Under the pieces are notes generated by a model. It was not told the origin of the DNA and made no database searches. It was given only the letters and a program-made list of their open reading frames with translations. Source: Dehalococcoidia bacterium (lineage in GTDB: Bacteria; Chloroflexota; Dehalococcoidia; Plut-88900). Taken from it: DNA of 64,000 nucleotides. Position numbers and translations under genes: made by a program. Every line of letters starts with the position of its first letter. Position 1 is the first letter of the stretch. The stretch spans positions 3,147,321 through 3,211,320 of the forward strand of contig OZ240219.1 of assembly GCA_965197645.1 (NCBI GenBank), in the 5' to 3' direction. Shown one piece after another: positions 36,737 to 64,000 of this stretch.

Positions 36737-36746
36737 TGTGAGTCCC

Positions 36747-38892: not shown

Positions 38893-39597
38893 TTAGACTA
38901 CTCGCTTTTGCATTCTGGCCTCACGAGAGCCGACGGAGCAGTCCCGTAACAGAGGACAGCTGGGGCAGTCGGGCTTATTGGGGCGGCAGTAGGCCGACCC
39001 TATGTCGATGAGGCCCAAGTTGAACTCGCGTGCATGGCGGCGGGGGAGAAGTCCATTGGCGAACTCCGCAAGGCGAGTGTCGGAATATGCCGGACCGGCG
39101 CTAGGAAAGCCCAGTACACGCCGCAGAACACGCCCCGATCCTTCGTCAATCATCGGTAGGGGATGATTGAAAGCCATGCACAAAGTCGCTCGGGCACTGT
39201 ACCTCCCGATACCCGGGAGCGATTGCAGTTCCCCTAGGTCTTCTGGCACTTGTCCCCCGTAGTCTCGCAGCAAGCGGCGCGCGCACTCGACCAGTCTGTC
39301 AGCACGTAGGACGAGACCGAGAGGTCTAAACCACCAACGCAGAGCTTCGACATCGGTCGCTGCCAGTGAGGCAGGGTCAGGGTATGTGGTAACGAGATGG
39401 GTGTAAGGGCTGACCACCCTGGCTGCCTGGGTCTGCCGAAGCAAGACCTCTGCTATCAAAATGTGGAACGGGTTCCTAGTGTCCCGCCAAGGGAACTCTC
39501 GCCCATTGCTACGGAACCAACTCACGACAGAGGCTGCGAGCTCTTTGCTGCTCCCCAGAGCTCTGTCTCTGTTCGGCTGTCGTTCTGCTTGAATCAC
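38893..39597 (-). CDS. HhH-GPD DNA glycosylase with 4Fe-4S loop (MIG/short MutY-like)
   Basis: GREFPWR, AEVLLRQT, LPGIGRYSA, MID, CRPNKPDCPSCPLLRDC; no MutY C-terminal domain. Confidence 0.85.
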   Translation of the reverse strand: MIQAERQPNRDRALGSSKELAASVVSWFRSNGREFPWRDTRNPFHILIAEVLLRQTQAARVVSPYTHLVTTYPDPASLAATDVEALRWWFRPLGLVLRADRLVECARRLLRDYGGQVPEDLGELQSLPGIGRYSARATLCMAFNHPLPMIDEGSGRVLRRVLGFPSAGPAYSDTRLAEFANGLLPRRHAREFNLGLIDIGSAYCRPNKPDCPSCPLLRDCSVGSREARMQKRVV

Positions 39598-40587: not shown

Positions 40588-42734
40588 AGGTTGTCATCCC
40601 GGACTACATATCTGAGGTCGAAGCGCGGATCCTCGCTCGGCACAAAAAGGCCGAGCGCTGTGGTCTCTACCGGATCGGATAGTCCATCCCCGCTAACTCG
40701 AATCACGTGCACCTGGAGCTGGACACGACCCTCGTGGATGTTCTCGTCGCCGGGATAGAACCTGGGATCGGGGGGATCCCTGCCCGGGGTGCGACCCTGC
40801 ATGGGGTTCACGCGACCTTGCCGCTTGGTTCTCTCTCGTGTTCGACCTCCCGTCATATATACAAGGTCCATAGATGGGAGCACCCCTGCAAGCAGCAATC
40901 GTGCCAGGTACTCACTTGTATAGGATGCGTCCCAGTCGGTCCCCTCTGCTTCGATTTTGGCTAGCAGCCCTGCTATGACCTCTTCAGTCGAACAGTCCTC
41001 AGCAACAAGGTGCTCGACGTTCCCAAAGCGCTTGAGAGACGTCTCCTCTCGCTGGGCAAAGAAAGTCCTCACTGATTGGAGATTGCGTGCAGCGACGACC
41101 TCATCCTCTACGAGGCGGTTCTGTATGTCCCAGCCTCCGCCTCTGAATCGCCGATAGCTAGCTACATTCGACCTGGTTGGCTTTAGGCCCATGTTCATAT
41201 CCAGCGAGAGCATGCGAGGCCACTCCCGAATGGATAGTCGTTGCCGCTGGTTTCGGCGAAGCGCCTCCCAAAAGTCGTCCTCATGCCTCAAGAGCTCTGT
41301 GTAGTCGTCTCGAAGCTGCGAGGTTACGAATATGCGACAGACATCAAGGTAGTCATTCTTGTAGCCGAACCATCGAGCTCGCTGCTCCATGGTGTCGGCA
41401 TTTGTCTCGTTCTTCGCCCGGCGAGTGATGTACGTGACCGCTAATCCCTCAATTGTGACTCCTCGGCCAAGCATGTTGCCGCCGACGAGGATGTTGTTCT
41501 TTAGCCTGAAGGGTGTCCCAATGGGGTCGCGGCCCAAGGGTAGGCTATTGACCATCCACACCTCGACGAGCCAAACCTCGTCACGCAACTGCTCGAGCAC
41601 CTCTTCCCAAGCAGGGGGATCTTGTACCGTGGAGCACAGATCGTCATAGGCCGCCCGCATGAGAGATATCAGCTCATGTCTAGCGGGATCGTCGTCCGAA
41701 AGGCTGAGACTCTCACGCCAAAGCCCAATGAGATTGCGGACAGCTGTCTGGAGTCTCTCGTGGTCGGCACGTAGGTTGCTGTTGTGAATGAGCATCGAAT
41801 GCCATGCATTGGACTCGCGTCGGTGTCGAATAGCGCCGCCGACAAGGAAGGTCGCGATGGCCTGCCTGAGGCCATCGGGGATTCCCCAGACGTGCTCGTC
41901 TTCAGCCTCTGCCAAGGGCACGGGCCTCACATATCGATCGCGATCTGACCCGAAGAAAGTGGCTCCGCCACAGTATCCGTGTCCCGGCTCAACGAGAACC
42001 CCAAAATCAGGTGAGAGGCCATCGATCCCAGATATGAGAAGGTTCGCTTGAGGAGTTGCTGTGTACGCCACATAGGCGTGGACGCGAAGAGCAGCCCTTA
42101 GCCTAAGGATGCTCTCATAGATAGCAGATCGTCTCCCGCGGCGGAACTGGGTGTTGAGGGACGCTTCGTCCCCCTCATCATCGATGATGAGGGTTGGGAA
42201 GCCACTGAGCTCGGAGGTGGCTAGGACCCGCCTTGCATCTTCAAGCCGCTTGCGGTTTTTCAGCACTACGATCAATGCGTGCCCACCACCATGAAGCACG
42301 CTTCTAATGACCTCAGCGTCTTGGGGGATTGGGTTCCTGAAGGGCGTTAGATTCGGGCGCCTAGCTTCCAGGTCGTTGTACAGCCGGGTGTAGTTCTGCT
42401 CCAAGAGGGGGTTCTTCGTACCAGCCAGCACTACCGTTATACGGTACCCGTTGTCTATGGCCAGGGCGATTAGAGATGTGTAGGAGAGGGTTTTGCCACT
42501 CTGGACCTTGCCAAGCGCAAGTCCAGTGACTCTCCTATCGTTGTCCGCTGGAGTTGGGCACCGACCAAGAATTGATGCGGCAGTCTCTACAACATCGTCC
42601 CACTCGTCGTCGCCGACACGCTCCTGATACCTGCTCCTCAGGCGTTGAATCTCTTCACCATCGATAGATGGCCCCCAAAGATCCGTTGCCGTCGACAAGG
42701 GATCAATACCGATAGTCATGCTAGGCTCGACCAT
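40584..42734 (-). CDS. Z1 domain-containing SF2 helicase-like protein
   Basis: GKVQSGKT, IIDDEGDEASLNT, YTATPQAN, HSMLIH, GGNMLGRGVTIEGL, DTMEQRARWFGYK. Confidence 0.9.
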   Translation of the reverse strand: MVEPSMTIGIDPLSTATDLWGPSIDGEEIQRLRSRYQERVGDDEWDDVVETAASILGRCPTPADNDRRVTGLALGKVQSGKTLSYTSLIALAIDNGYRITVVLAGTKNPLLEQNYTRLYNDLEARRPNLTPFRNPIPQDAEVIRSVLHGGGHALIVVLKNRKRLEDARRVLATSELSGFPTLIIDDEGDEASLNTQFRRGRRSAIYESILRLRAALRVHAYVAYTATPQANLLISGIDGLSPDFGVLVEPGHGYCGGATFFGSDRDRYVRPVPLAEAEDEHVWGIPDGLRQAIATFLVGGAIRHRRESNAWHSMLIHNSNLRADHERLQTAVRNLIGLWRESLSLSDDDPARHELISLMRAAYDDLCSTVQDPPAWEEVLEQLRDEVWLVEVWMVNSLPLGRDPIGTPFRLKNNILVGGNMLGRGVTIEGLAVTYITRRAKNETNADTMEQRARWFGYKNDYLDVCRIFVTSQLRDDYTELLRHEDDFWEALRRNQRQRLSIREWPRMLSLDMNMGLKPTRSNVASYRRFRGGGWDIQNRLVEDEVVAARNLQSVRTFFAQREETSLKRFGNVEHLVAEDCSTEEVIAGLLAKIEAEGTDWDASYTSEYLARLLLAGVLPSMDLVYMTGGRTRERTKRQGRVNPMQGRTPGRDPPDPRFYPGDENIHEGRVQLQVHVIRVSGDGLSDPVETTALGLFVPSEDPRFDLRYVVRDDNL

Positions 42735-44292
42735 ACTCGACCTCGATCTCGCCAGCCCGCCTGAGTACCTTGTTCATGTACATGCGAAAGTCGCTTGGGC
42801 TTACAAGTCCATTGGAAGAGATCTGAAGAGCCATGCGCTCGGCCAAGGCTAAGGACAGGACAAACTTCTGAAGCAAGGCAAGTGAGTCCCTGTTTTCTAG
42901 GTAGGGTGCTAGAAAGGGATGGGCAGTGTTTAGGAAGACATCAATCTCGTTCTCACGCGGGACGCTTAGCTGCATCCAGTGGGCGTCACTTAGCTGGTCT
43001 TGCCAGTGAAGCCTGAATAGCCAGACCTCCGCGCCGACCTCAAGACGATACGAGACAGGACCACTGCTGGCAGCTCGAATCAGCTCGGTGTCGGCGCGCT
43101 CCGTCTCCGCGGACTTCGGAGGATCAGGCAGTCTGATCTCCTCGTGAACTGCGTTGCCGAACCTCTGGTCGGAGAAGACCTGCCTAAGGGGCTCCGACAC
43201 AACCTCCATGACCGGCTGGGTGATGGGCTTGCCGCGCTCTCGGTAGCCCTCGGCTTTGTCCATGTAGTCTTGGCAGACTCGCTTCAGTTGCTCAATGAAA
43301 TCATCCTCCAGCCCACCGGACCAGTCGAAGGCATCCTTCGCTTGCGTTACCGGCCAAGCATCCATCTTGATCTCACCGACAAGACGCTGAGAGCGAAAGG
43401 TATTGCCCTGGCCGAAAATCTCGGCCGGCTTGTAGCCTTCCCCCGGCCCCCCCACGATGACCCGTCCGCGCCTTAGCAAGGCGAACCCCGCATCCCGCTG
43501 GCTTCCAGGCGTTCGCACTCCAACCCAGCCGTTGGCGCGAAGTGTCGTTCCTTCAGACTCCCACGGCACATCAATGGTGAAGCTCTTTCTCCAAACGTTA
43601 TTGACCCCGCCTGGCAAGTCCTCTTCAAGGAAGCTGGGCTCCTGAAATGTGATGGGCTCGCCATTCCAGAGAATCTGGATCTCTCCTGAGCGAAGGTCCT
43701 CTCGGTACATGCTGCCAAGCTGGTCCTTCACTCGGCCTTGCGTTCTTCCCCGGATTGGCTTGTAGAGTCCCTCGATCGTGATAGACGTGTAGTGGGTCTC
43801 CGGCGCGGAATGTCCCACCTCGACGGCAATGCTGTCCATATGACTGTCCACAAGCTCTGGTACGTGTACACGGGCCGTGTACTCACTGGCAGAGCCGAGC
43901 TTACTGCTTCGAATCGTCCAGGTTGTACCGAACCAGCAAGCTGCCGTCTTGAGCCCCATGCCGAACTCGCAGCGCCCTGTGGGATCTGGGGGTGGCCTAT
44001 CAAGCACAACCGCCCTGGTGAGCTCCTCCATCTCCATTCCATGCGCGTTGTCGACTATCGTCAGCGCATTTCTATCGCTGTCATAGGCGACCTCGACTCG
44101 TAAGCTGCCGGGGCCTCCTTCGAGCTTGTATCCTCCAATCAGCTCCGCTCGATGGTCGTAGTAGCTCTGCGTAGAGTTGTCTACGAACTCGGCAATGGCG
44201 TACCACGGCTGATAGCTCAGTCGCCTGTAGGTAGCGTAAACGCTTACGGCTGGTCGAATGTCTATTGTTAGCTGGCCCTCAGAAGCAACCAT
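42721..44292 (-). CDS. MORC/MutL-like GHKL ATPase
   Basis: AIAEFVDNS, DNAHGM, EFGMGLKTAA, QRLVGEI; GAGGAGG RBS before ATG at 44292. Confidence 0.9.
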   Translation of the reverse strand: MVASEGQLTIDIRPAVSVYATYRRLSYQPWYAIAEFVDNSTQSYYDHRAELIGGYKLEGGPGSLRVEVAYDSDRNALTIVDNAHGMEMEELTRAVVLDRPPPDPTGRCEFGMGLKTAACWFGTTWTIRSSKLGSASEYTARVHVPELVDSHMDSIAVEVGHSAPETHYTSITIEGLYKPIRGRTQGRVKDQLGSMYREDLRSGEIQILWNGEPITFQEPSFLEEDLPGGVNNVWRKSFTIDVPWESEGTTLRANGWVGVRTPGSQRDAGFALLRRGRVIVGGPGEGYKPAEIFGQGNTFRSQRLVGEIKMDAWPVTQAKDAFDWSGGLEDDFIEQLKRVCQDYMDKAEGYRERGKPITQPVMEVVSEPLRQVFSDQRFGNAVHEEIRLPDPPKSAETERADTELIRAASSGPVSYRLEVGAEVWLFRLHWQDQLSDAHWMQLSVPRENEIDVFLNTAHPFLAPYLENRDSLALLQKFVLSLALAERMALQISSNGLVSPSDFRMYMNKVLRRAGEIEVEYGRA

Positions 44293-44302
44293 CCGACCTC
44301 CT

Positions 44303-45667
44303 CTAGCCGGCGCTGACAGCGACAGGGCTTTGAGCGCTTCCCTTACTGGATTCTTCAACGCGCAGAAGTCTCCTGGTGATCTCATACACAACGTCTACGT
44401 GTACCGCGTTCCCGAGTGCCTTGAACGTCGCCGTCCTGGATTCAGGAACACACAGGTCATCGTCGAAGCCCTGCAGCCGGAGCCCTTCGACCCTGGACAG
44501 ATGTCGCTGCTCAGGTCCGAGGATTGGAATCTGTGTGCTTGTCATTGCGACGAGCGACGGGCAGCTTCGGTATCTCTTGACGCGCAGTCCAGAGGGCCTG
44601 AACTGCAGAATGTGGTTCCACAGGTTCCTTTCCTCGCCCTGACAGTTCCACTCAAGCTTGCGGAGAGATGGAGGGAACGTACGAAGGCTAGCCAGCCACT
44701 GTTGGGGGAGAGCATTCCGAATCGATGTATACCAGTCACGATTCGACCTGATGAAACGAACCTTCCAATCCGGGAACTCCACAGCCTCAGTCCGTGCGTA
44801 CCTCGGTAAGGCCTCGAAGCTTACTCGGGACGAGACCCTCCCATTCTTGCTATCCGTCTGGCCAACTGTCGCAGCGAGCAGTTGAGCCCAAGGAGTAGTC
44901 CCTTCGTAGGCGTAACGTGCACCAAACTCATCCGCCCATATGGGAAATGACGGCAGGTCAACCTTCTCCTCCGGGAGAGCATTGAGGAAGGAGTTCCAGT
45001 GATCGATGCATCGCCGGTGCTGGTCTAAGATGAGTGTTTCGCTGTAGTCGGACTGGGACAGGTCGTCCTTATGCTGCACGATGGCAGACATTGAGGTGAG
45101 TGCACTTCGGTTTCTCGGAGGGAAGGTCTCTTCGGGCAGGCCCTCACGAGAGGCTACTGCGAAGAAGCGCTCTCGGTGATGTGGAAACCCGAGATGGTGT
45201 GGGGAGAGCAGCCCTTCACCACCACTGGCTATATGCTCTGTTCCCTTGACGTCATAGCCGAGCCTTCGCAGGCTGGTCTTGACGATGCGCCACGTTTGAC
45301 CGTCGTCATGACGCTCGAAGTTTCCAACATTCTCTAGAATCACATACGTAGGCTTATGCGCCTCCAGGATCTCCAGAATCTCATGGAAGAGTGTCCCTGA
45401 AGTCTTGTCCTTCATTCCGACCTGAGTCCCTGACTTGGAGAATGGCTGACAAGGGAACCCGGCGCACAGTATGTCGTGAGGTGGTACATGGTCCTTGGCT
45501 TGTCTAATGTCTCCGAGGATCGCAGGTCCCTCGGGGAAGTTCCGGTTGTAGACTTGCTGAAGCTCGCTATCAACCTCAGAGGCAAAGACGCACTCGTGTC
45601 CGAGTTGCTCAAGTGCAAGACGGAATCCACCAAGACCTGCAAAGAGATCGACAAATCTCATTGCCAA
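44303..45667 (-). CDS. DNA (cytosine-5)-methyltransferase
   Basis: DLFAGLGG, AGFPCQPFS, LENV, PHHRER, LRLQGF, LGNAV (motifs I, IV, VI, VIII, IX, X). Confidence 0.96.
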   Translation of the reverse strand: MAMRFVDLFAGLGGFRLALEQLGHECVFASEVDSELQQVYNRNFPEGPAILGDIRQAKDHVPPHDILCAGFPCQPFSKSGTQVGMKDKTSGTLFHEILEILEAHKPTYVILENVGNFERHDDGQTWRIVKTSLRRLGYDVKGTEHIASGGEGLLSPHHLGFPHHRERFFAVASREGLPEETFPPRNRSALTSMSAIVQHKDDLSQSDYSETLILDQHRRCIDHWNSFLNALPEEKVDLPSFPIWADEFGARYAYEGTTPWAQLLAATVGQTDSKNGRVSSRVSFEALPRYARTEAVEFPDWKVRFIRSNRDWYTSIRNALPQQWLASLRTFPPSLRKLEWNCQGEERNLWNHILQFRPSGLRVKRYRSCPSLVAMTSTQIPILGPEQRHLSRVEGLRLQGFDDDLCVPESRTATFKALGNAVHVDVVYEITRRLLRVEESSKGSAQSPVAVSAG

Positions 45668-48163: not shown

Positions 48164-49795
48164 TCAGCGGGCCAGCAGGACGTGGGCGGGCTCCCAGTCG
48201 CCTGGAGACCGCCACGCCCTTCCCAGCGGGCCCAGCGCGTCGATGACGGCGCTGTGGGAGACCCACAGGGGCACGCTGACCCCGGCGCGGTCCATCTCGT
48301 CCCTCGCCACTCTCAGGAAGTTGGTGGCGGCGATGTCGTCGTCGAAGACGATCAGGACGGAGGGCCTGGCGCCGTGGTCGTCGATGGGACCGTGAGATAA
48401 GTAGTAGCGCAGATAGGGGGCGATCCGCGTCGCCATTGTCGAGGGGCGCACCGCTCGCCTCTCCCACTCCAGGAAGAAGGGCGAGGCGGCCGGGCCTCTT
48501 CGGAGGACGCCGAAGGCGTCGGGGTTGACGGAGCGGTTCCGTCCCTCGTGCTTGAAGTGCCTCGACGCGCTCCTGGGCGGGTCGATCTGGGCCAGCTCCC
48601 ACCCCAGGGCGTGGGCCTGCCGCGCCAGGGCGGCGACGAAGGCGTGAACGGCCCCGGTGTGCTCGATGTTCCTGAGCAGCTGGCGGCTCCTGCCGCCGGA
48701 GACGTTGCGCCAGTCGCATGGGGCTTCGGCGTCCACGGGAGCGACGCTCCATCGCCTCCTCGCGACGGCGACGGAGGTGCGGTCCCTACGGGCCAGGAGC
48801 GCCACGCCCCGGTCGGTGAGGGCGAGTCGTCCGCTCCCGTCGATGGGCCGGGTCACGAGGCCGAACCCTTCCAGGGGGTTGACGAGCTGGGAAGCGCGGC
48901 GCTCGGAGACGGCCATCAGGCTCGCCAGCTCGGTGCGGAGCAGCCAGGGCCAGTCATAGATAAGGTCGAGGGCGCGCTTCTCGGCGGGTTTGAGAAGGAC
49001 GGGCAGAGCGCGGTCTGCGTCCGGGGCGCCGTCGCCGGGCAGGTCCGCCTGCGAGGGGTTAGCCTCCACGGGCAGCTCTCCTCCGGGAGCCAGTTGCCCC
49101 AGGGCGTTCCGCAGATTGGCGGGCGGGCCGGAGGCGGCGGGACGCCACACCTCGTCCTCGGGTCCGGCGAGGGCCGCGTCCCGTTCCAGGGCCAGCAGCG
49201 CCTCCACGGTGCGGGGCAGCATCTTGCGGGCGTGTCTGAGCCGCACCTCGTCGGTGACCAGGACGAGGACCGTTCCGGGGCGCGGCCCGTCCCGCAGCTT
49301 CCAGAGCCGCCGTGAGAAGCCCGTCCTGTCGGCGGCGTGTCCCTGCCTTGCGATCCCCACGGTCCGCCCGCCAGGAAGGGTCATGGCGGCGTCGAGGGGA
49401 CCGGCCCGGTACAGGCGGAGGCCGACCGGGTGGGCGACGCCGGCTACGGTCGAGGCCAGGCGGTATACGACGGCCAGGGCGTCGAGCCGGTCCATCAGGA
49501 TGCGCAGCCACTGGACGGAGACGGGGCGGGAGCGCAGCAGGTCGTCGGGGGTGGAGCCCTCGCTCTCGGCCAGCGCGCCCAGTCCCCTGGCGGTGAGGTG
49601 GTAGCGGCGGGTCGGCGGTATCAGGTCCGCCGCGTGGGGCACGTGGGCGACGAGGCCCGCGTCCTCCAGCCCGCCGACCGCCTCGTAGACCGCGCTCCTC
49701 GACGCGCCGGACATGGCGGCCAGCTCCAGCCGGTCGGCGAAGGGGCACGACGCGATGACGCCGAGCGTCTCCCGTTCACTGCCGTTGATCTTCAT
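48164..49795 (-). CDS. Replication-relaxation (Replic_Relax) family putative relaxase with duplicated architecture
   Basis: Two wHTH-like halves; EHTGAVH...VNPDAFG...FFLEWER motif; directly after VirD4. Confidence 0.75.
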   Translation of the reverse strand: MKINGSERETLGVIASCPFADRLELAAMSGASRSAVYEAVGGLEDAGLVAHVPHAADLIPPTRRYHLTARGLGALAESEGSTPDDLLRSRPVSVQWLRILMDRLDALAVVYRLASTVAGVAHPVGLRLYRAGPLDAAMTLPGGRTVGIARQGHAADRTGFSRRLWKLRDGPRPGTVLVLVTDEVRLRHARKMLPRTVEALLALERDAALAGPEDEVWRPAASGPPANLRNALGQLAPGGELPVEANPSQADLPGDGAPDADRALPVLLKPAEKRALDLIYDWPWLLRTELASLMAVSERRASQLVNPLEGFGLVTRPIDGSGRLALTDRGVALLARRDRTSVAVARRRWSVAPVDAEAPCDWRNVSGGRSRQLLRNIEHTGAVHAFVAALARQAHALGWELAQIDPPRSASRHFKHEGRNRSVNPDAFGVLRRGPAASPFFLEWERRAVRPSTMATRIAPYLRYYLSHGPIDDHGARPSVLIVFDDDIAATNFLRVARDEMDRAGVSVPLWVSHSAVIDALGPLGRAWRSPGDWEPAHVLLAR

Positions 49796-52374: not shown

Positions 52375-54652
52375 CTAATGGCGTCCGGGCCGCCACTCGA
52401 TGACCTCCGCCTCCTCCGGGGTGGCCTCGATGCGGACGGGGAAGCGGTGTCCCTTCGCCAGCAACAGGCCGTCTCCACGGGGGCAGGACAGGAGCCAGCG
52501 CTGGAGGTCCTCGGGCAGATCGAAGGCGTCGCCGACCGCGCCTACGGCGGCGGCGTCCTGCTGGAGAAGCAGCTTGAAGGCGGCGTTCTGGAGGAGCGCC
52601 CTGCCGGAGTGTCCGGTGATGGTCCTCGACGTGTCCTCGGAGAGCAGGTCCTGGACGTCCTGGGTGATGAACTGGAGGCCGAGCCTGTGCTTCCTGGCCC
52701 GCTTCGCCATCGAGACCATGAAGGCCGCGCCTTCGGGGTGCTGCATGATCGACCACACCTCGTCCACCACCAGCAGCCGGGGCTTGGGGTCCTGGGCGGC
52801 TGCGGCCCACACCGTCTCGGTGCAGACCATCGCGGCGGCGGGCCTCAGCTCCGGCTCCAGGAGGTGCAGGTCGAACACGGTGATCAGGGCCTCGTTTCCG
52901 AGAAGGTCGTCTCCCTCGTCGGAGAGCAGGTGTCTGAGGCTGCCGGTGGCAAAGGGCCTGAGCAGCCTTGCAAGAGCGGCGTCACCCGCCTCGTCTTCTC
53001 GCAGATATGTGTAGAAATCACGGAAGCCGGTGCGCTCCCTGGGGCGGGCGTAGTAGCCCGCCAGGGCGTGGTCGAGGGAGGCGCGGCGCTCCGCGCCGAG
53101 ACTCTCGCCCACCATCACCTCGATGAGGCGTCTCAGGCTGCCGATGCGCTGGAGCATCTCCTCGGAGTCGCCCCGCTCGATGACGAAGGGGTTCATCCCC
53201 TCGCCCGGCACGCCGGGGCTGAGAACGCGCCCGCCCGCAGCGCGGGCCATGTCCGCGTACTCGCCCTCGGGGTCGATGGCGTAGGCGGTCACTCCCCTGG
53301 TAAGGCCCCGCAGCATCCCCAGCTTGGTGGCAAAGGACTTGCCGCTGCCGGAGCGGGCGAGGACGGCGGTGTTGGCGTTCAGATGGGTGCCGTCCCAGGG
53401 GTCGTAGACCACGGGGGAGCAGGCCCGCATGTCGATGCCGTAGAGGGTGCCGCTTCTCGTGTCCATGTCGGGCGGCGAGAAGGGGAAGAGCCGGGCGATG
53501 CTGGACGTGTCCAGGCTGCGCCACTCGGCCACGGCGTTCAGGGCCAGGGGCAGCGTGGAGAGAAGCCCCTCGCGCTGGCGGAAGGCCAGGTTGTCCAGCT
53601 TGCCCAGGGTGGCGGCGAAGTGGGCCTTGGCCCGCTGGGTCATCTCCCTCAGCGACGCCTCGTCCCTGGCATGGAGGGTCACGGACAGGGAGGCGTGGAA
53701 CAAGCCGCTCCCGGCCCCGCTGCACCTCGTCCCTGAGACGGGTGATGTCCTCCAGGGCGATCTCCGCCTCGGGCGACATGGTGCGGCCCCGCTTGAAGGA
53801 GAGGGACTGGGCCGACTCGAAGCGCACCTTCTGCCACTCAAGGGTCCTCGCCGCCTGCTCCGCCGGTATCGGGCCGACGTGGACGGAAAGGTCCATCGGC
53901 GCGCCCGCCGCCATCAGCCCTTGCAGGAATCCGGGGGCCAGGGAGCGGGGCCAGCGGCCCAGGTGCAGGGAGCGGACCAGGCGGTCTCCGACGCGCATGT
54001 CTCGGCGGCCTATCTCCACCTCGACCGGCGTCTCCTCGTCGTGCTCGGATGGGGAGCCGCCAAGGGCGGCTGCTATGAAAAACATGCGGAGCTGCCTGCC
54101 CTTCAGCCGGTGGACCGACAGCCCCGCTCTCGCGAGCAGGCCGCGCAGGTCGTCGATGCGGGCCGCCTCGCACACGGCGTAGAAGCGCCGGTCGAGGATG
54201 CCGTCGCGGGCCTCCAGGTCGGTCAGCAGACGACCAAGGGACTCGGCGGCGGCCCGCGTCTGCGGGGGCAGGCCCTCCGGCTGGGCCTGCTTGAGGTTCT
54301 CCCTCAGCCCTCCCAGGCGGGGCGGGTGCTGCCGGATGAGGAGCTGGGCCGGGAAGTCCAGGGCGTTGAGCGCCCCGGCGAAGGCCCCCAGCTTCGGCTC
54401 GTCCAGCTCCAGGCCCATCACCTCGCAGACGCCGAGCTTCACGCCGTCCAGGCGGACCGGCCCGTCGTCGTCCAGGTGCGACAGCATGAAGAACAGGGGC
54501 AGCTCGGGCGGGAGCTTGGGGAACGGGACCGTTGCCTCGGCGTTCTGCGGATTGGCCGGAAGCCTCTCTTCCGGCGTCTCGTGCGGAGCGTCGGCCGCCT
54601 CCGGCGACCCAACCTCTCCTCGTCTCAACAGTTGTCGAATAAGCTCTTTCAA
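52375..54652 (-). pseudogene. VirB4-like conjugation ATPase split by a 1-nt insertion at ~53702
   Basis: N-part in ORF 53018-54652 up to RGRERL; C-part in ORF 52375-53841 from FHASLSV with RSGSGKS, IDPEGEY, VVDEVW, RARK, ITQD. Confidence 0.85.
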
Positions 54653-57179: not shown

Positions 57180-58157
57180 TTACTCCCCGCTGCTCCGGGG
57201 CTCTCCGCCGCCGTCTCCGCCTGCCGATGGGGTCGCCATCGAGGCCGCCGAGCTGAGGCCGCTGGCGGCTGCCGAAACGCCCGCGCTGGCCGCCATCGCG
57301 CCCACCGCCATGCCTCCCGGTCCTCCGGCGGCTCCGCCCGCCACCAGCCCGATGGTCTTCGCCGCGCGCACCATCGACGAGGGCAGGTTCATGCCGAAGT
57401 AGAGCATCGAGAGCCAGGAGTCGAAGGTCCCGGCGTTGCCCAGCATCGAGGGGACGCGGGTCGCCATGTAGACGAAGGCCAGGGACAACAGCAGCTTCCA
57501 GATCAGGTCCTGCACCGGCTCGAATGCGGCGATGGCGGCGACCTCGTTGAGGAAGCCGAAGCCCAGGGCCAGCGCGATGAGCTGGATGGCCTGCTGGAAC
57601 ACCGTCGTCATGAAGAGACGGAGCCAGTGGCGGCCCCATCCCGCCGTGTGGGGCAATATCCACAGCCCCAACGCGATGGGGGCCAGGGCCAGCAGGAGGT
57701 CGATCAACGCCAGGCGCAGAACCATCTGCACGATCACGTAGAGGACGAAGAAGCCGTAGACGAGGTAGAGGACGGCAAGCAGCAGGGCCATGCCCACGCT
57801 CCCGGCCTGCACGCCGGTCATCAGGGTGTGGAGGGTGGAGCGGAGCAGGTCGCCCGCCGTGACGTTCAGGGAGACGGCTATGAATCCCGACACGGCGTCG
57901 GCCACGTCCAGGACCAGGGCGCACCACCAGAGGGACGATGCGGCGGCCACGAGGCCGAGCACCAGTCGGGGGACCATCTCCCGCCATCCCGTCTGCTGGC
58001 GGCCCAGGTGCTCGGAGACGATGAGGCTGAGCCCCATCCAGCCGAGGATCACCACCAGCGCGCCCGACGTGATGGCCCAGACGACCAACCACGCCTGGCG
58101 CACCAGGTCGTGGGCGTAGGTGAGGTCGGGGGGAGTGCCGGTGAGGATGTCGCTCAT
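57180..58157 (-). CDS. VirB6/TrbL-like conjugation membrane protein
   Basis: Multi-TM; VPRLVL, RLALIDLLLALAPIAL..WILP.T..W...W; Gly/Ala-rich tail. Confidence 0.85.
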   Translation of the reverse strand: MSDILTGTPPDLTYAHDLVRQAWLVVWAITSGALVVILGWMGLSLIVSEHLGRQQTGWREMVPRLVLGLVAAASSLWWCALVLDVADAVSGFIAVSLNVTAGDLLRSTLHTLMTGVQAGSVGMALLLAVLYLVYGFFVLYVIVQMVLRLALIDLLLALAPIALGLWILPHTAGWGRHWLRLFMTTVFQQAIQLIALALGFGFLNEVAAIAAFEPVQDLIWKLLLSLAFVYMATRVPSMLGNAGTFDSWLSMLYFGMNLPSSMVRAAKTIGLVAGGAAGGPGGMAVGAMAASAGVSAAASGLSSAASMATPSAGGDGGGEPRSSGE

Positions 58158-58765
58158 CTGCCGGATTCCCTCCGGCAGTTGTCGGCGTCCTCGCCGCTGG
58201 CACGCTCAACCACGCCGCAGAGGGTCCCGTGGACGCCCTCGATGACCCAGCCGGCGAAGGCCCTCGCCCAGCGTCCGGGGTTGAGGGCGGACAGTATCTT
58301 GTCCCAGATGCGGCCCGGCTCGTGGAAGGGTATGACGGCGTAGAAGTCGCCCCTCAACCCGTCCACTGACTCCGCCAGCATGACCAGCAGGTAGGCCCGG
58401 TCCCGGTCGAGCTCGGGGTGCTCGTCCAGGTCGGGGTACTCCCATGAGTACTCCCAGCCGTCGCTTCGCTCCTTCTCGCCGCCCCTGACCCGGTACATGG
58501 CGCTTATCCAGTCGCCGGTGTCGGCGTCCCGGACGGCGTAGAAGAGGCTCTCGATCTGCCGGTCGAAGAGGGGGCGGGCGACGAACTCGCCGCCGCCCTT
58601 GCGCTCGACGAAGTCCCGGTCGGCGTTGACGAGGGTCAGCTCGTCAGGAGGGGACTGGGCCAGGGCGATGTTGCTTGCGGGGATTGCCACAAGCGCCGCC
58701 AGAAGCAGCGCGGATGCCAGGGATATTAGCCGCCTTGCCGACCGGAGTTTCGATTTCAGCGCCAA
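58154..58765 (-). CDS. Exported hypothetical protein, first gene of the transfer operon
   Basis: GAGGTG RBS + TTG; signal peptide ending ALA; ATGA-coupled to the VirB6-like gene. Confidence 0.65.
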   Translation of the reverse strand: MALKSKLRSARRLISLASALLLAALVAIPASNIALAQSPPDELTLVNADRDFVERKGGGEFVARPLFDRQIESLFYAVRDADTGDWISAMYRVRGGEKERSDGWEYSWEYPDLDEHPELDRDRAYLLVMLAESVDGLRGDFYAVIPFHEPGRIWDKILSALNPGRWARAFAGWVIEGVHGTLCGVVERASGEDADNCRRESGR

Positions 58766-59068
58766 CTCGTTCACCTCTATGCGGTTTGATGCGATACATC
58801 GGAGTGCATCGCCCGCAAAAGAGTGTGTACAGCCGGATGGCGATTCGGAACCTCCCATGGGGCGGTGCAAAGCTGCACCGGGTGCATGAATGCACTGCCC
58901 TGCGAGGGCTTACGAAACACCCCCCTTTGGTGCTGTAGTTGGGGTGTACAGGGAATGGACGTTGGTGGCAGAAAGCCAAGCGGGGTCGTGGGCAAGCTGA
59001 AACGGGGTAAATCACCCCCCTACAGGACGTAAACGGGAAGCACTTTTTGGGAAGTCCTCCTTCCGGCG

Positions 59069-59137
59069 GGGACTTGGACAAAACGGCGTCCCAGGGACTT
59101 GGATTCATACAAGCCGGAAATTCGGGAGGGACTTGGA
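59069..59137 (+). repeat. Three GGGACTTGGA direct repeats in the divergent promoter region
   Basis: Exact 10-mers at 59069, 59094 and 59128. Confidence 0.8.
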
Positions 59138-59182
59138 TAATCCCCGGCGGTGACTCGGGGTTTTTGGAAGGAGGCGTTGACG

Positions 59183-60007
59183 ATGAAATCACGGGAGCCG
59201 GTCTTCGAGAAGAGCCGGAGCGTTGAGGACGTGCACCACCTGCGGCTGATGGCGCTGCTGCGGGAGCTGGTGCGAAACAAGGGGGTGATGAAGGCGACCC
59301 AGGAGCTGAGCGTGGACTACAGAACGCTGACCAACAGTCTGAAGGACGGCAGGCTGTCCAGGCGGATGCGCCAGGCGTTGGAGAAGGCGCTGCTGGAGGG
59401 CGGGGGCTCGCCCGCAGCCGAGCAGCGGGAGCGCAACGACGGGCTGGAGGAGGAGCTGAAGGAAGTGAAGGGACAGGTCGAGGCGTTGGCGAAGGACCTG
59501 AGCAAGGGCGTCGCGGCAGTCCAGGGGGACGGGAAGGCGCTCAGAGACGAGCATGCGCAGCTGAAGCGCCGGGTGGCGGCGCTCGAAGCGGGCGGCGACG
59601 CTGAGGACCCGGGGGAGGAGGCGAACGAGGCGGGCGGGCCGGCGAAGGGGCGGACCGCGCCCTGGCGGGAGTACCCCGATCTCGTGACCCGTGAGGCTGC
59701 GGAGGGCGACGAGGAGGTCTTCGGTAAGGCCTGGCCGCTCATCGCAGAGTGGCGGGAGCTGAGGGACGCGCACCCGAACCGGGGCGGTGGCCCTGAGTGG
59801 CTGCGGTCCGAGGAGCGTCTGCTGGTGATGGAGCTGACGCTGCTCGAAGAGCACGGCATGACGCTTCCGCCGGAGAAACAGCCGCTGCGGGACTTCGCTC
59901 GGAACGGGCAGATCAACTGGCGCAGGACAGCGCTCTCCGACACGCGGAGGGCGCTGAGAAAGTGGGAGCTTCTGCGGCGGTTGACCTTCGGGCTGTGGGG
60001 GCGGTAG
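59183..60007 (+). CDS. HTH-like + coiled-coil protein
   Basis: AAGGAGG RBS; KGVMKATQELSVDYRTL HTH-like segment; heptad-rich middle. Confidence 0.7.
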   Translation: MKSREPVFEKSRSVEDVHHLRLMALLRELVRNKGVMKATQELSVDYRTLTNSLKDGRLSRRMRQALEKALLEGGGSPAAEQRERNDGLEEELKEVKGQVEALAKDLSKGVAAVQGDGKALRDEHAQLKRRVAALEAGGDAEDPGEEANEAGGPAKGRTAPWREYPDLVTREAAEGDEEVFGKAWPLIAEWRELRDAHPNRGGGPEWLRSEERLLVMELTLLEEHGMTLPPEKQPLRDFARNGQINWRRTALSDTRRALRKWELLRRLTFGLWGR

Positions 60008-60251
60008 CGGGCCACTTTCTGCGTCACGCAGTTTGAGGCAACTTTTCGGCAAGAAAAAAGCCACCAAAGAGCCATCAAAGGCAGTGATTCGTGCGGGGGG
60101 TCACGAAAGACCTTTCCATCGGGTGTCGGCTGCGGTAATAATTGATGCAGTTTCAGGCTTTTCCAGCGTTTCCCGCCCTAGAAACCTGGGGGCATTTCCC
60201 TAAAGCCCGGGCTGCACCGAAAAGGTCGCCCAAGAGGGATGCTGCCGATGC

Positions 60252-60603
60252 GGAGTGACTAAGCCCTTCGCAGGCAGCGTTGGCCGAATCGACGGAGTGA
60301 TAAGCCCTTCGTCCTCGGCCTCGTTCGGTGGGTTGGAGTGATAAGCCCTTCTCCCACCGGGCACGTTCGGCGGTTGGAGTGATAAGCCCTTCTCCCGCCG
60401 GGCACCTGTCTGGCGGTTGGAGTTTGATCGCTTCATCCGCTGGACACCTTGTCTTACGGTCGGGGTTGATCGCTCCTTCCGTTGGGCACCCGTCCGGCGA
60501 GATGGAGTTTGATCGCTTCTCCGCTGGACGACGGGGACGGAGCGCCTTCTGCGCCTCGTCCTCACCCGGTCGGTCGGAGTGCGTTTTCGCCCCGGCCGAC
60601 TCC
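60252..60603. repeat. Degenerate tandem array, ~42-bp period, 7 clear and 2 decayed units
   Basis: Unit starts at 60252, 60294, 60335, 60376, 60419, 60462, 60504, 60539, 60576; cores GGAGTGATAAGCCCTTC and GGAGTTTGATCGCTTC. Confidence 0.85.
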
Positions 60604-60858
60604 ACATGCCTGCGACGTGGCTGTCTGACAGTCATGCCGCAGCTTCGACACGCGCCGGTCTGCGACTGAGAAGCAGGCTGGCCGCTTCACGTCAGGCAGC
60701 TTTCCCCAACCCGGACGCTATCCACCCTGGGCGAGCTGCGTCTTCTTTCACCCCACTCCGTCTTCCGCGTTCGACATGCGTCAGTGGGCGGAGTGCGTCT
60801 TCGGAACGGAGTCACGGGTTCAACGGCAACGGCACACACATCAGCAAGGAGGTAACGA

Positions 60859-61377
60859 ATGGCGGCAACGGAACGGACACAGGCCAATGAAGGAGGTACG
60901 GGCATGGCGGAACAGTACGTGGGACCGAGCGCGATCAGGATCGCCAACCTGCTGGGGCACCGGGTCAGCTTCGAGCGGGGCTGGTTCTGGACGACGACGG
61001 CGGTCTGTCACGGCGGCAAGTCGGACGGGCTGGCGTTTCGGCAGCGACCGGACGGCAACGGCATCGAGGTCAAGTGCCACACCGGGGGCTGCTCGGCCGG
61101 CGTGGTGATAACCGAGCTTGAGGCGCTCATCGGGCTGCCCATCTGGACGGCCTACGCACAGGTGCATGACACCCCGGTCAAGGCCCCTGAGAAGCAGCCG
61201 TGGTGGAAGCGGAAGAAGGTCATGGTGGCCGGGGCGGTGGTCCTGGTCGTTGCGGCGCCGCTGATAACCGGCGACGTGGAGCTGTTCTTCCTGAACCTCG
61301 TCGGGCTGGGCATCGGGGCGCTGCTGCTCCGCCGGTTCATGCCCCGGCGTCCGGTAGGCAGGCCGCCTCGACGCTGA
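60859..61377 (+). CDS. Zn-finger-like domain with C-terminal membrane hairpin
   Basis: VCHGG...VKCHTGGC resembles a primase-type Zn-binding domain; WWKRKK then two TM helices. Confidence 0.65.
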   Translation: MAATERTQANEGGTGMAEQYVGPSAIRIANLLGHRVSFERGWFWTTTAVCHGGKSDGLAFRQRPDGNGIEVKCHTGGCSAGVVITELEALIGLPIWTAYAQVHDTPVKAPEKQPWWKRKKVMVAGAVVLVVAAPLITGDVELFFLNLVGLGIGALLLRRFMPRRPVGRPPRR

Positions 61378-61419
61378 CAACGGGGGTCTCAGGCTCCTTC
61401 ATACCCATTCCCAACACGC

Positions 61420-61457
61420 AAGGGCCGTCTCCCATCCGGGGGCGGCCCTTCTTCTTT
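61420..61457 (+). terminator. Probable intrinsic terminator
   Basis: AAGGGCCGTCTCC...GGGGGCGGCCCTT hairpin followed by CTTCTTT. Confidence 0.6.
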
Positions 61458-61514
61458 GCCCGCAAGCGGGCGCAGATCGAAGGCAACAAATCAAGGGCAC
61501 TTAGGAGGTGCACG

Positions 61515-62000
61515 ATGACGACGGCAACACTGGTAGCAGGCAATCGGACGATGGACACGGTGGACAGGCCCCGGCGCAGCCTGGAGGAGCTGGTCGACCA
61601 GCTCATGGCGGCGATGGGATTCAAGGAGCAGGAGCCGCAGACGGCATCGGCGACGGAGATACCGAGCGTGGCCAAGAGCGTCCACGAGGCCCGGCGTCTC
61701 CGTCAGGCGGGAGACGTCGACGGCGCGCTGGCGGTCCTCGCCGGCGTGGACGCGGCGACAGCGGAGACGAAGGAGGCTCGGTGGGCCTTCTCCGAGTGGA
61801 CGCAGCTGGTGAAGCGGCGGTTCGGCGGCCGCGGCGCCCTGGTCTACAGCCAGGGCACGGGACGGGCCGCTGCGCTGGTTCCCACCGGCGACGGCGGGAC
61901 GCTGGAGGTCGCGGCGGTCCTGGGGATGCGCTGGCGGCCGGGCAAGGTCGTCTCGGGGCGCAGCCTCCGGGGGCTCAGGCCCCTGACCGGAGGCGCGTGA
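61515..62000 (+). CDS. Hypothetical protein
   Basis: AGGAGG RBS before ATG at 61515; TGATG-coupled to the primase. Confidence 0.7.
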   Translation: MTTATLVAGNRTMDTVDRPRRSLEELVDQLMAAMGFKEQEPQTASATEIPSVAKSVHEARRLRQAGDVDGALAVLAGVDAATAETKEARWAFSEWTQLVKRRFGGRGALVYSQGTGRAAALVPTGDGGTLEVAAVLGMRWRPGKVVSGRSLRGLRPLTGGA

Positions 62001-63064
62001 TGGTCACGGTCAACGTGGACATACCCGCGCTGAAGGCCCGGCACCCGCTGGGCGACACGGTGGAGGCCGCCGGGGTGCGGCTCAGGGGACGGGGCAGGGT
62101 CCGCCAGGGCGTCTGCCCCTTCCACGACGAAGTCGAAGGCAGCTTCACGGTGTACGCCGACTCGGAGCGCTTCTATTGCTTCGGGTGCGGACTCGGCGGC
62201 GACGTGCTGGACTTCATCCAGCAGGCCGAGGGGCTGTCGCTGCCGGAGGCCATCGCGCGGCTGGACGGCAGCCCAGGGCTTGCGCCCCGGTCTGCCACTC
62301 GTCCAGCCCCACCGCGGCGGACCTGGGACGCCGCGCTGCCTCCCAGGGACCCCGCCTTGCTGACGGCGGCGGGGCGCTTCTACGCCGGACGGCTCCGGCG
62401 TTCTTCAGAAGCGCGGGCGTACCTGGCCTCCCGGGGCGTCGGCCTGGACGCCGCAGCCCGCCTGGGCCTCGGCTACTCGCCGGGCAACGGGCTGCGGCTG
62501 GCCCTGGAGTCCCTCGGCTTCTCCGAGAAGCGCATCAGGGACTCCGGGCTGTTCATGGAGCGGGGAGCGGAGCGGTTCGCCGGAATGGTCGTCGTCCCCG
62601 ACCCCGTATCGAGTACGGGGCAGGCAGGCGGCCTCGTCCGCTGGCTCGCCGGGCGAGCGGTCGATCCCGACCGGACACCCCGCTTCCAGGCCCTCCCCGG
62701 CCCCAAGCCGGTCCTGGGTCTCGGGCGTCTCGGCCCCGCCCCTGATTGGGCGGTCGTGGCCGAGGGGCTGTTCGACTGGCTCGCCCTTACCGGATGGGGC
62801 ATCCCATCCTGCGCCGCTCTCGGCACGCAGGGCGTTGAGCGGGTCGCCTCGGCCCTCCGGGGCTGCCCCCGCGTCTTCCTCGCCTTCGATGGCGACGACG
62901 CGGGCCTTGAGGCGACGGAGCGGCTTCTGACCCTGCTGGGTCGCAGGGCCGCCGCCGTCACCCTCCCCCAGGGCGTCGGCGACGTGGGCGAGCTTGCGGC
63001 CCTCCCTCACGGACAGGCCGCCTTCCTCCGCCTGCTCTCCCTGGCGGCACGCTCCGCCCGCTAG
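62000..63064 (+). CDS. DnaG-like primase (CHC2 zinc finger + Toprim)
   Basis: CPFHDE...FYCFGCG.GGD, AYLASRG, VAEGLFD, LAFDGDDAG. Confidence 0.9.
   Translation: MVTVNVDIPALKARHPLGDTVEAAGVRLRGRGRVRQGVCPFHDEVEGSFTVYADSERFYCFGCGLGGDVLDFIQQAEGLSLPEAIARLDGSPGLAPRSATRPAPPRRTWDAALPPRDPALLTAAGRFYAGRLRRSSEARAYLASRGVGLDAAARLGLGYSPGNGLRLALESLGFSEKRIRDSGLFMERGAERFAGMVVVPDPVSSTGQAGGLVRWLAGRAVDPDRTPRFQALPGPKPVLGLGRLGPAPDWAVVAEGLFDWLALTGWGIPSCAALGTQGVERVASALRGCPRVFLAFDGDDAGLEATERLLTLLGRRAAAVTLPQGVGDVGELAALPHGQAAFLRLLSLAARSAR
62602..62625. repeat. 24-bp palindromic insert encoding PVSSTGQA (copy 1)
   Basis: CCCCGTATCGAGTACGGGGCAGGC; second copy at 63381-63404. Confidence 0.8.
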
Positions 63065-63315
63065 CGGCTCCCCGCCGCTCCCCAGCGGGCTTCCCCGCCC
63101 GTAGTTCACCCCCCCCACCCTTTCCCTCTATCGGAGCCTGCCGCGCTCCGCTCTCTGGCGGGCTTCCCGGCCCGCTTCTTGCCCATTCCCACTCAAGCCG
63201 CACAGGAGGTCCTATGCCCGATTCACGACGGGCTTCGCCCGCCCACGGATTCCCATAGGGGGAGTCCGCCCATCGGCCATTCGCTACAGGAACACACCAC
63301 AAGAAGGAGATTGAG

Positions 63316-64000
63316 ATGTTCAACAAGAACGGAAGCAACAACGGAAACGGGAGCGCGAACGGCGTCCACAAGGAGACCGCCCCCGTGTCGAGCACGGGGC
63401 AGGCTATTGCCGCCCGGAACGGCAACGGGCACAAGCCCGACGCCGCCATCCCCGCCGAGCACGACCTGCTCTGGGACGGGCTCTCGCCCGCCGTCACGCA
63501 GGCGCTCGGACAGCCCCTAGACTCCGAGTTGGTCTCCCAGCGCAAGGGGCGCGGCGGCAAGTCCTTCGACTACCTCGAAGGCCACCTCGTCATCGCCCAG
63601 GCCAACCGGATATTCGGCTACGGCGGCTGGGGCTACGAACTGGTCGGGGACGTCACCCTGCGCCGGATCGAGACGGTCAACCCCCAGACCGGCGAGGTGA
63701 AGGTGGAACAGGGCTACAGCGCCCCGGTGCGGGTCTCCGTGGCGGGCGCCCTGCCCCGCACGGATGTCGGCGTCCACCCGGTGGCGGAGGAGACCTTCGA
63801 CGGCCACGACACGGCCATCAAGGGCGCGGTCACGGACGGATTGAAGCGGGCGTTCCGCAGCTTCGGCGTCCAGTTCGGCAACGCTTTCTACGGCGACCAG
63901 CCGCAGGTCGGCAACCAGCCGCAACCGCAGCGCGTCCCCGCCCCGTCCAACGGCAGGTCCGGGCAGGCCCAGGCCAACGGCAAGGGCCGCAATGAGTCCC
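63316..64000 (+). CDS. Rad52/Rad22 (Sak)-family ssDNA annealing protein (3' partial; absent from the ORF track)
   Basis: Manual translation: VSQRKGRGGKSFDYLEGHLVIAQANRIFGYGGW...AIKGAVTDGLKRAFRSFG.QFGN; AAGGAG RBS. Confidence 0.92.
   Translation, partial: MFNKNGSNNGNGSANGVHKETAPVSSTGQAIAARNGNGHKPDAAIPAEHDLLWDGLSPAVTQALGQPLDSELVSQRKGRGGKSFDYLEGHLVIAQANRIFGYGGWGYELVGDVTLRRIETVNPQTGEVKVEQGYSAPVRVSVAGALPRTDVGVHPVAEETFDGHDTAIKGAVTDGLKRAFRSFGVQFGNAFYGDQPQVGNQPQPQRVPAPSNGRSGQAQANGKGRNES
63381..63404. repeat. 24-bp palindromic insert encoding PVSSTGQA (copy 2)
   Basis: CCCCGTGTCGAGCACGGGGCAGGC; compensatory A-T to G-C change versus copy 1. Confidence 0.8.

Follow-up and report, generated by a model that had tools for sequence, protein, structure and literature searches.

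The closest described counterparts of the locus analysed here are the STAXI (RF01728) and radC RNA (RF01754) motifs which, in the portions of the source papers drawn on here, are tandem structured motifs found on proteobacterial conjugative elements, next to ssb, anti-restriction, integrase or radC genes (PMC2864571, PMC5587801). For STAXI, the available part of the original description weighs a function as RNA vs. one as single-stranded DNA (Weinberg et al. 2010, PMC2864571). The present locus is an array of ~42-base degenerate repeats in a 64,000-nucleotide stretch of the genome of a Dehalococcoidia bacterium (Chloroflexota; assembly GCA_965197645.1, contig OZ240219.1), hereafter called the window, whose positions are used throughout. 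The array is carried by a conjugative element, and very probably forms part of a structured RNA transcribed from the + strand. It resembles STAXI and radC RNA, as far as these partial sources portray them, in being made up of tandem structured units, here followed by co-oriented genes for SSB, RadC and a DNA methyltransferase. It differs from them in that its unit is a simple two-tier hairpin and not a pseudoknot, in the number of units (nine, not two or three), in its placement within a predicted RNA of 0.55-0.7 kb whose 5' and 3' domains are conserved, and in its host phylum, Chloroflexota and not Proteobacteria. On the same sources, the array is closest by context to these two motifs and is a member of neither family. 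A scan of 58000-64000 against Rfam 15, with E up to 1, returned just three chance-level matches, neither STAXI nor radC RNA being among them, and a non-exhaustive literature search found no description of the array.

The array occupies an 850-base gap between two open reading frames (ORFs) on the + strand, one of 274 residues (59183-60007), whose product is called p285 below, and one of 172 residues (60859-61377). Its units start at 60252, 60294, 60335, 60376, 60419, 60462, 60504, 60539 and 60576, in exact agreement with the spacings of 42, 41, 41, 43, 43, 42, 35 and 37 given by the initial annotation, which had been made from the sequence alone. Both core types named there are present as well: units 1-4 carry GGAGTGA(C)TAAGCCCTTC (type 1) and units 5-7 carry GG(A/G)GTT(T)GATCGCT(T/C)C (type 2). 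Tandem Repeats Finder reported the stretches 60294-60423 (period 41, 3.1 copies, 86% matches, score 156) and 60369-60529 (period 42, 3.8 copies, 72% matches, score 155). The 17-base type-1 core has three exact occurrences in the window vs. 0.17 expected, a number reached in none of 100 shuffles. As for the linkers, they are 19-27 bases long and are mutually related and mutually paired. The initial annotation had proposed a comparison across related loci, and the same architecture was found in three further copies in the genome and in 17 of the 20 loci retrieved through the upstream protein, one of these 17 being cut by a contig end; the array is thus not a chance feature of a single sequence.

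The pairing register was revealed by lining up the paralogous copies of the region. Around each core, pairing joins the 3' half of the linker before it to the 5' half of the linker after it, which gives nine hairpins between 60241 and 60601. In the paralogues the stems change on both sides, from GCTGCC/GGCAGC in the window to GCTGG/CCAGC in copy B and GCTGCT/AGCAGC in copy C, and within the window CGGTGGG/CCCACCG adjoins CGGCGG/CCGCCG. Each hairpin is built from an outer stem of 6-10 pairs, a small internal loop in most units, a GGRG/CYYC inner stem and a conserved apical part of type 1 (UGAUAAGCC) or type 2 (UUGAUCG). The hairpins are 37-40 bases long and are separated by 2-5 unpaired bases, so that the ~42-base period follows from hairpin size plus spacer and not from helical phasing, and the earlier reading of 42 bp as four helical turns that suit phased binding is not supported. 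The stem that GGAG...CTCC had been said at the same time to be able to close is supported, with GGAG...CTTC as a further form of the pairing. The features of the predicted RNA, all on the + strand, are the following.

60113-60142, + strand: sigma-70-like promoter, TTTCCA, 18 bases, AATAAT, with the -10 at 60137-60142 (promoter scan).
60156-60189, + strand: conserved 5' motif GGCTTT-N-CCA-NN-GTTTC-N7-AGAAACCTGG, containing the first hairpin (60163-60189), an inverted repeat with a single occurrence in the element.
60241-60278, + strand: hairpin H1, type-1 core, outer stem GCTGCC/GGCAGC (sequence, predicted fold).
60282-60320, + strand: hairpin H2, type-1 core, outer stem GGCCGA/TCGGCC (sequence, predicted fold).
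60323-60362, + strand: hairpin H3, type-1 core, outer stem GTTCGGTGGG/CCCACCGGGC (sequence, predicted fold).
60365-60403, + strand: hairpin H4, type-1 core, outer stem GTTCGGCGG/CCGCCGGGC (sequence, predicted fold).
60408-60445, + strand: hairpin H5, type-2 core, outer stem GTCTGGCGG/CCGCTGGAC (sequence, alignment).
60451-60487, + strand: hairpin H6, type-2 core, outer stem GTCTTACGG/CCGTTGGGC with one mismatch (sequence, alignment).
60492-60529, + strand: hairpin H7, type-2 core, outer stem GTCCGGCG/CCGCTGGAC (sequence, predicted fold).
60533-60563, + strand: hairpin H8, 13-pair stem GGGGACGGAGCGC/GCGCCTCGTCCTC with one mismatch, loop CTTCT (sequence, predicted fold).
60568-60601, + strand: hairpin H9, 34 bases, loop TTTT, with GGAG again (predicted fold).
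~60608-60643 and ~60652-60685, + strand: two further hairpins, the first part of a module present in 1-3 copies in paralogues.
60695-60749, + strand: terminator-like element, stem GGCAGC...GCTGC then GTCTTCTTTC; found family-wide as GCTGCG then a T-rich run.
60754-60852, + strand: conserved 3' domain, CACTCCG...CGGAGTG at 60754-60795, then GCGTC..., up to the ribosome-binding site.
60846-60852, + strand: ribosome-binding site AAGGAGG, at the end of the conserved 3' domain.

For the pairing test, cores were chosen by their pattern alone, blind to their flanks, in 148 regions carrying the 5' motif of the family; with tandem cores only, the set comprised 420 hairpins from 93 regions, 295 of them distinct. 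Cognate flanks form a mean of 6.28 contiguous pairs vs. 4.88 +/- 0.09 for shuffled partners (maximum 5.17, 500 shuffles). Concerning the self-complementary linkers of the initial annotation, pairing within a linker reaches 5.46 vs. 5.71 +/- 0.09 for swapped half-linkers; a cognate signal is absent and that register was the wrong one. An alignment of 75 distinct type-2 hairpins has 1050 cells, of which 96.3% are paired; both sides are altered in 42 cells vs. 17.3 +/- 4.8 in shuffles (0 of 500), and the covariation score is 0.336 vs. 0.276 (again 0 of 500 shuffles); when the partners are slid by one to three columns, only 34-54% of the cells pair. In this alignment GGRG, on the 5' side of the inner stem, is base-paired in 100% of the cells. 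Paralogues also carry type-3 cores, whose central four bases vary (GTTG, GCTG, GTAA, ACTG, CCCG, ATTG) and whose GAC/GTC flanks stay complementary, as fits a stem-loop and not a binding site.

The mean stem run in these hairpins is 3.40 with Watson-Crick pairs only, 6.28 when G-U is allowed and 3.94 with the G-U pairs of the - strand, and G-U pairs make up 371 of the 1449 outer-stem pairs (26%). Folding of the array as RNA was a check that the initial annotation had put forward: for 60225-60625, the + strand reaches -215.2 kcal/mol and a z of -6.76, with none of 100 shuffles as good, vs. a z of -1.91 for the - strand. Folded as DNA, the same segment has a z of -3.24 on the + strand, also unequalled in 100 shuffles, and of -1.28 on the - strand. 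As for the whole leader, z is -5.72 on the + strand vs. -1.44 on the - strand. The fold is selected on the + strand.

The promoter is the sole promoter-like site in 58700-61600, where shuffles have a mean of 0.2, and it predicts a transcript start at ~60149-60151. Family-wide, its -10 and the 5' motif are a fixed distance apart, and a -35/-10 test was passed by 61 of 118 distinct upstream regions. The relatively AT-rich stretch pointed out earlier at 60040-60160 is real (49.6% G+C vs. 64-69% in its neighbours) and holds this promoter; an evident unwinding element was not seen there. Expression was followed in four sponge metatranscriptome runs of one study, whose assembled contigs were compared with the window. 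All four runs have contigs on 60164-60691, with 95-100% identity, among them one of 363 bases over 60222-60584 (2 differences) and others over 60164-60382 (1 difference) and 60369-60691 (3 differences). Summed depth, a measure that adds up repeats and relatives, is 45-86 over the four runs in the bin 60276-60509 and 0 in all four over 59106-59807, in the upstream gene, and over 60744-62381; 60744-61500 was within the stretch used to find the runs, yet it is uncovered. The RNA-library contigs are confined to the array-bearing segment.

The genome is one contig of 3.21 Mb, 94.5% complete, and circular since the Rad52/Sak ORF (292 aa) spans the contig end into its start (window 63316-64000 plus bases 1-195 of the contig, G000:C1). 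Six copies of the 5' motif are present, at positions 1365940, 1954410, 2543539, 2976242, 3035376 and 3207476 of G000:C1, which implies several related elements in one genome. Besides the window, three of them have the whole non-coding region with an array and two have a single such hairpin. The copies differ in the type-1 hairpin that they carry, copy C mixing two types, and no hairpin cores were found in the genome outside the six leader loci. The search with the upstream protein gave 20 loci, all in Dehalococcoidia assemblies, and the search with the 5' motif alone gave at least 120 stretches of DNA, almost all of them from Dehalococcoidia assemblies. The 80 loci listed from the motif search are all in Chloroflexota assemblies, save one contig binned as Acidimicrobiia. 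Among 301 sampled genomes of the class, 23 have the 5' motif, with up to eight copies each, whereas the reversed control gave 0 matches. A homologue of p285 is encoded in 73 of the 80 motif-found loci, and in most cases its gene stops 110-270 bases short of the motif. The counts for the other genes, which the 3-kb flanks limit, are 41 for the primase, 27 for the 172-residue ORF and 18 for Sak.

The terminator-like module is repeated one to three times in paralogues, and the element at 60695-60749 probably acts as a terminator. Behind the RNA, the first ORF is variable in the family: it has only 3-20 codons in 11 of the 37 loci with a recognisable start, and in 6 of these 11 a conserved terminator tail follows the vestigial ORF; this speaks for the RNA being a product in its own right. 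Loci L048, L050, L079 and L024, as well as copies C and D, have a conserved 9-codon ORF, M(H/R)V(N/D)EV(H/Q)RR, behind the RNA. This ORF is what is left of the small membrane protein that stands at that place in other loci, namely its start, and the terminator tail comes ~95 bases past the beginning of the ORF.

Taken together, we lean towards a reading in which the array is the central domain of a structured + strand RNA of ~0.55-0.7 kb, the leader of an establishment or replication operon, with the hairpins as docking modules that govern read-through. A promoter of its own (-10 at 60137-60142) would drive + strand transcription of the RNA, and the RNA would lead an operon for the 172-aa membrane protein, a DnaG-type primase, a Rad52/Sak recombinase, SSB, RadC and a DNA methyltransferase. 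That one two-tier hairpin recurs in nine near-copies points to a dimeric or oligomeric factor that docks repeatedly, here presumably an RNA-binding one; p285 is the sole candidate in hand, as a predicted partner. Binding of the factor would set the choice between a stop at the terminator-like module or modules at ~60695-60749 and read-through into the operon. In a resident element, a terminated, stable leader would accumulate and the operon would remain silent. As for the main role of the RNA, a cis-acting leader or attenuator is favoured on account of the abundant non-coding segment, the silent ORFs behind it, the one to three terminator-like modules and the conservation up to the ribosome-binding site, although we put it forward tentatively, as one role that the RNA may well have.

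A more far-reaching proposal, which we regard as unlikely, is that of a new modular class of ribonucleoprotein RNA in which the C-terminal domain of p285 docks on the hairpins, providing both a switch of 'zygotic induction' at the RNA level and immunity between elements. In a naive recipient without p285, the leader would be read through and the establishment genes would fire, while p285, once accumulated, would coat the row of hairpins and force termination. The abundant RNA might then set immunity among co-resident elements, with the swappable type-1 hairpins as specificity determinants.

Several results weigh against the reading of the array as the core of a transcribed, attenuating leader. 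Column shuffles of the type-2 alignment still pair in 93.5% of the cells, and the pairs with a two-sided change number 5 vs. 4.2 in shuffles (197 of 500), which is not significant; the pairing potential is therefore partly compositional. In the 3' domain, the candidate stem CACTCCG/CGGAGTG pairs in 90.7% of the cells, without covariation beyond shuffles and with its 3' side fixed by the pattern used to pick the sequences, and RNAalifold on this domain (34 sequences) gave just a 5-pair hairpin. The minimum-energy fold nests several of the middle units in one long stem instead of local hairpins, the + strand taken as DNA also beats its shuffles, and the terminator scan did not call the element at 60695-60749. 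On the expression side, assembled contigs from a single study carry no strand, ends or true depth, such RNA libraries can contain DNA, and the contig of one relative reaches 143 bases upstream of 60159, beyond the predicted start. Concerning the candidate partner, no RNA-binding domain was recognised in p285, and its N-terminus weakly resembles a DNA-binding helix-turn-helix (HTH).

Second in likelihood comes a stable non-coding RNA acting in trans, as a protein sponge or scaffold or as an immunity RNA among co-resident related elements, which we consider rather improbable. The abundance of the segment in the RNA libraries, with the ORFs behind it uncovered, is what such an RNA would give, and so is a unit reduced to promoter, RNA and a 3-20-codon ORF, at times with its terminator tail; the presence of six copies here and of as many as eight in another genome, with different type-1 cores between copies, and the adjacency of the p285 gene, with its conserved Trp/Arg/His-rich C-terminal domain, in 73 of the 80 loci point the same way. 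However, no complement of a loop or spacer was found in the element at up to 2 mismatches, except the array's own antisense, the genome has no hairpin copies elsewhere, and the conserved 3' domain reaches the ribosome-binding site, as that of a leader would. RNAs of the CsrB and RsmZ type titrate a protein through many small hairpins that expose a GGA-containing element in loops or single strands. The array shares with them the reiterated small hairpins and the GGA-containing element within one abundant RNA, but its GGA lies in the 5' strand of a stem and not in loops, and CsrA was not found in the genome (PF02599, a search whose control matched in 3 of 14 genomes). A CsrB-type sponge was accordingly rejected, GGA being paired and PF02599 without a match in a 94.5%-complete genome. 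Among immunity RNAs, P4 CI and P1/P7 c4 derive from a leader, and nut and put are attenuating or antiterminating leaders. The likeness to P4 CI and P1 c4 lies in a stable leader RNA of a replication or primase operon, abundant in the resident state and with terminators behind it; the differences are that no complementary target sites were found in the element and that the reiterated hairpins have no counterpart there, and no homology is claimed.

That the + strand hairpins act as single-stranded DNA, either for ssi/sso-type priming by the neighbouring primase or as an Frpo-like single-strand promoter, is very unlikely. The array does head a block of primase, Sak, SSB, RadC and methylase genes that resembles a leading region, folding is strand-specific, the + strand as DNA is unmatched by its shuffles, and the question of RNA or single-stranded DNA is likewise left open for STAXI in the part of its description available here (PMC2864571). 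Yet 26% of the outer-stem pairs would be G-T, Watson-Crick-only stems average 3.4 pairs, and the array stands out from its shuffles far more as RNA than as DNA (z -6.76 vs. -3.24). A single-strand promoter would moreover need a fold of the template, the - strand, whose z is -1.28; the conserved promoter lies directly upstream, the RNA-library contigs are confined to the segment, and 10 kb separate it from the relaxase gene. Protein-bound repeats of duplex DNA, i.e. the iterons or centromere-like site of the initial annotation or operators for the HTH-coiled-coil protein, are more improbable still. Phased protein binding as such, under which oriT accessory sites had also been proposed, is not supported. 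The conserved cores recurring at about every 42 bp, the junction of AT-poorer and AT-richer DNA and the primase gene nearby, the weakly HTH-like N-terminus and coiled coil of p285, and core types differing between co-resident copies, as incompatibility determinants would, all suit such repeats. Nevertheless, the linkers neither stay constant nor drift freely but covary in pairs round the cores, with many G-U pairs on one strand, a constraint that phased duplex binding does not account for; the type-3 cores vary at their centre, between complementary flanks, as in a stem-loop; and no Rep, ParA or ParB family was found among the ORFs scanned, the neighbouring proteins being of unassigned family. 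The array is like textbook iterons and centromeres in its regularly spaced direct repeats beside replication genes, and unlike them in that selection is on single-strand pairing with G-U and not on duplex sequence, and in that no Rep or Par gene was found among the ORFs scanned. Iterons and a centromere-like site were rejected on the cognate flank pairing, the dependence on + strand G-U, the asymmetry of the strand folds and the lack of partition genes among the ORFs scanned.

The least probable reading is that of a guide or antitoxin array cut to unit-length small RNAs, CRISPR-, TIGR- or ToxI-like. A ~42-base tandem unit with a promoter upstream and terminators downstream is compatible with it, and the size range of type III antitoxin units includes that of the unit seen here. 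ToxI arrays consist of a promoter, near-identical tandem repeats of a few tens of bases, a terminator and an ORF, a layout that the present locus shares. It differs in its two core types and covarying stems and in a downstream ORF that is not ToxN-like, variable and often vestigial; a type III antitoxin was rejected, the repeats not being near-identical and the 172-aa ORF showing no ToxN/AbiQ family. A genome-wide search for ToxN gave no match, and its control matched nowhere either. Concerning TIGR arrays, the part of the source drawn on here describes units with two ~9-nucleotide non-covarying spacers and box C/D motifs, a tandem stem-loop form and the Nop-domain protein Tas (Faure et al. 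2025, PMC12045711). In this partial account the likeness extends to tandem units of similar size, to the stem-loop variant and to the presence of an associated protein with a coiled coil, which in Tas is joined to a C-terminal RNA-binding domain; however, the variable parts of the present array pair together, and the Nop domain was not found in the neighbours or in the genome (PF01798, the control matching in 4 of 14 genomes). Fold searches with p285 returned generic helical matches only, none of them Nop-like. A TIGR array was rejected because the variable segments covary. A CRISPR array was rejected as well, since identical repeats with unique spacers are lacking and the linkers are related and paired; a k-mer scan found no CRISPR array in the genome, and mimicry of a CRISPR repeat by an RNA anti-CRISPR was dropped, as there is nothing to mimic. 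The initial annotation had itself offered an array of small hairpin RNAs as an alternative, of which the structure and the transcription are supported and the ~42-nucleotide products are hypothetical; the RNA contigs span many units (363 bases). A likeness to Shine-Dalgarno pairing, the type-2 core matching 9 of 10 positions of the complement of the genome's 16S 3' end, was dropped as post hoc.

A coding repeat is also out. On the + strand, the window array has stop codons in all three frames. The - strand is open in one frame or more in 41 of 43 long arrays, with stop-free frames of 160 and 135 codons in the window, but the 160-codon ORF reads the same core in three different frames, and orthologous units differ in length by single bases (42/41/41/43/43/42 vs. 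42/41/41/42/42/42), which would shift any reading frame. The three ORFs over the array have no Pfam family. For annotation, this means that the stop-free - strand frames across the array should not be called genes.

The immediate neighbours of the RNA, all on the + strand, are listed below.

59183-60007, + strand (listed ORF starts at 59150): p285 gene, for a 274-residue protein; the gene most tightly linked to the RNA.
60055-60080, + strand: 11-base repeat AAAGAGCCACC, 2.4 copies, in the AT-rich stretch between the p285 gene and the promoter.
60859-61377, + strand: first ORF after the RNA, 172 aa, with a Cys/His-rich N-terminal part and C-terminal membrane helices.
61420-61450, + strand: intrinsic terminator-like hairpin of 13 pairs with tail CTTCTTTG, 3' of the first ORF (scan).

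The p285 family has at least 1502 homologues. No Pfam family was found above the cut-off for p285, and among the 120 homologues listed none is named or has a Pfam domain. The predicted model (mean predicted local distance difference test score, pLDDT, of 77) has a small helical domain at the N-terminus, then a coiled coil (78-136) and, at the C-terminus (residues ~155-274), a domain of three helices in which the alignment shows invariant Trp, Arg and His residues. Neither a significant sequence match in PDB nor a Foldseek match at E <= 0.001 was obtained; the best structural Z is 7.7, on generic helical bundles, and there are weak leads to HTH families for the N-terminus (0.80) and none for the C-terminal domain. 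Just past the stop of the p285 gene, a small hairpin CTGCG-TCA-CGCAG followed by TTT (60019-60034, +) is kept in close relatives; it may serve as a weak terminator between this gene and the promoter of the RNA. Upstream of the gene, three exact copies of GGGACTTGGA (59069-59078, 59094-59103 and 59128-59137, +), spaced 25 and 34 bp, sit in the divergent intergenic region between the type IV secretion system operon and the p285 gene and could be operators; at up to 1 mismatch the window has 8 matches vs. 5.95 expected, so that just the local exact cluster stands out. As for the 172-aa ORF, it has no Pfam family, and the tail CTTCTTTG behind it is also present in relatives and in copies C and D, ~95 bases past the short ORF.

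The element of the window is a conjugative element. Its - strand encodes a Replic_Relax relaxase-like protein, a coupling protein, VirB4, VirB6/TrbL and pilins; the only relaxase-like gene, Replic_Relax at 48164-49795 (-), lies ~10.4 kb from the array. On the + strand follow, in this order, the p285 gene, the RNA and the genes for the DnaG-type primase, Rad52/Sak, DUF7007, TSCPD, SSB, RadC and a DNA methyltransferase (DUF6094), a block that looks like an establishment or 'leading' region. The high-GC element runs on to about base 6000 of the genome. The VirB4-like gene (52375-54652, -) is split into two overlapping ORFs in different frames (53018-54652 and 52375-53841), with Pfam matches only in the second and with overlapping ends that translate implausibly; it may reflect a frameshift, a pseudogene or an assembly error. 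The 70% G+C element is preceded by a low-GC block (51-54% G+C, window 27000-39000), and a C-5 cytosine DNA methylase and a HATPase_c_3 protein are encoded just outside it (42721-45667); these regions may represent another island or a defence locus.

At the level of the family, the locus adds a large, abundant and well-conserved structured RNA family, absent from Rfam 15, that belongs to mobile elements of an uncultivated and ecologically important bacterial class. Its modular build, in which the ends are conserved, the number of two-tier hairpins varies and two to three hairpin types can be exchanged, provides many natural variants for structure-function work, and the array comes with a testable candidate partner protein of an unassigned fold family. 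It is the first sign found of an RNA-level organisation heading the establishment operon of a conjugative element in Chloroflexota, and it parallels the unexplained STAXI and radC RNA motifs of proteobacterial elements, such that solving one of them could explain the others.

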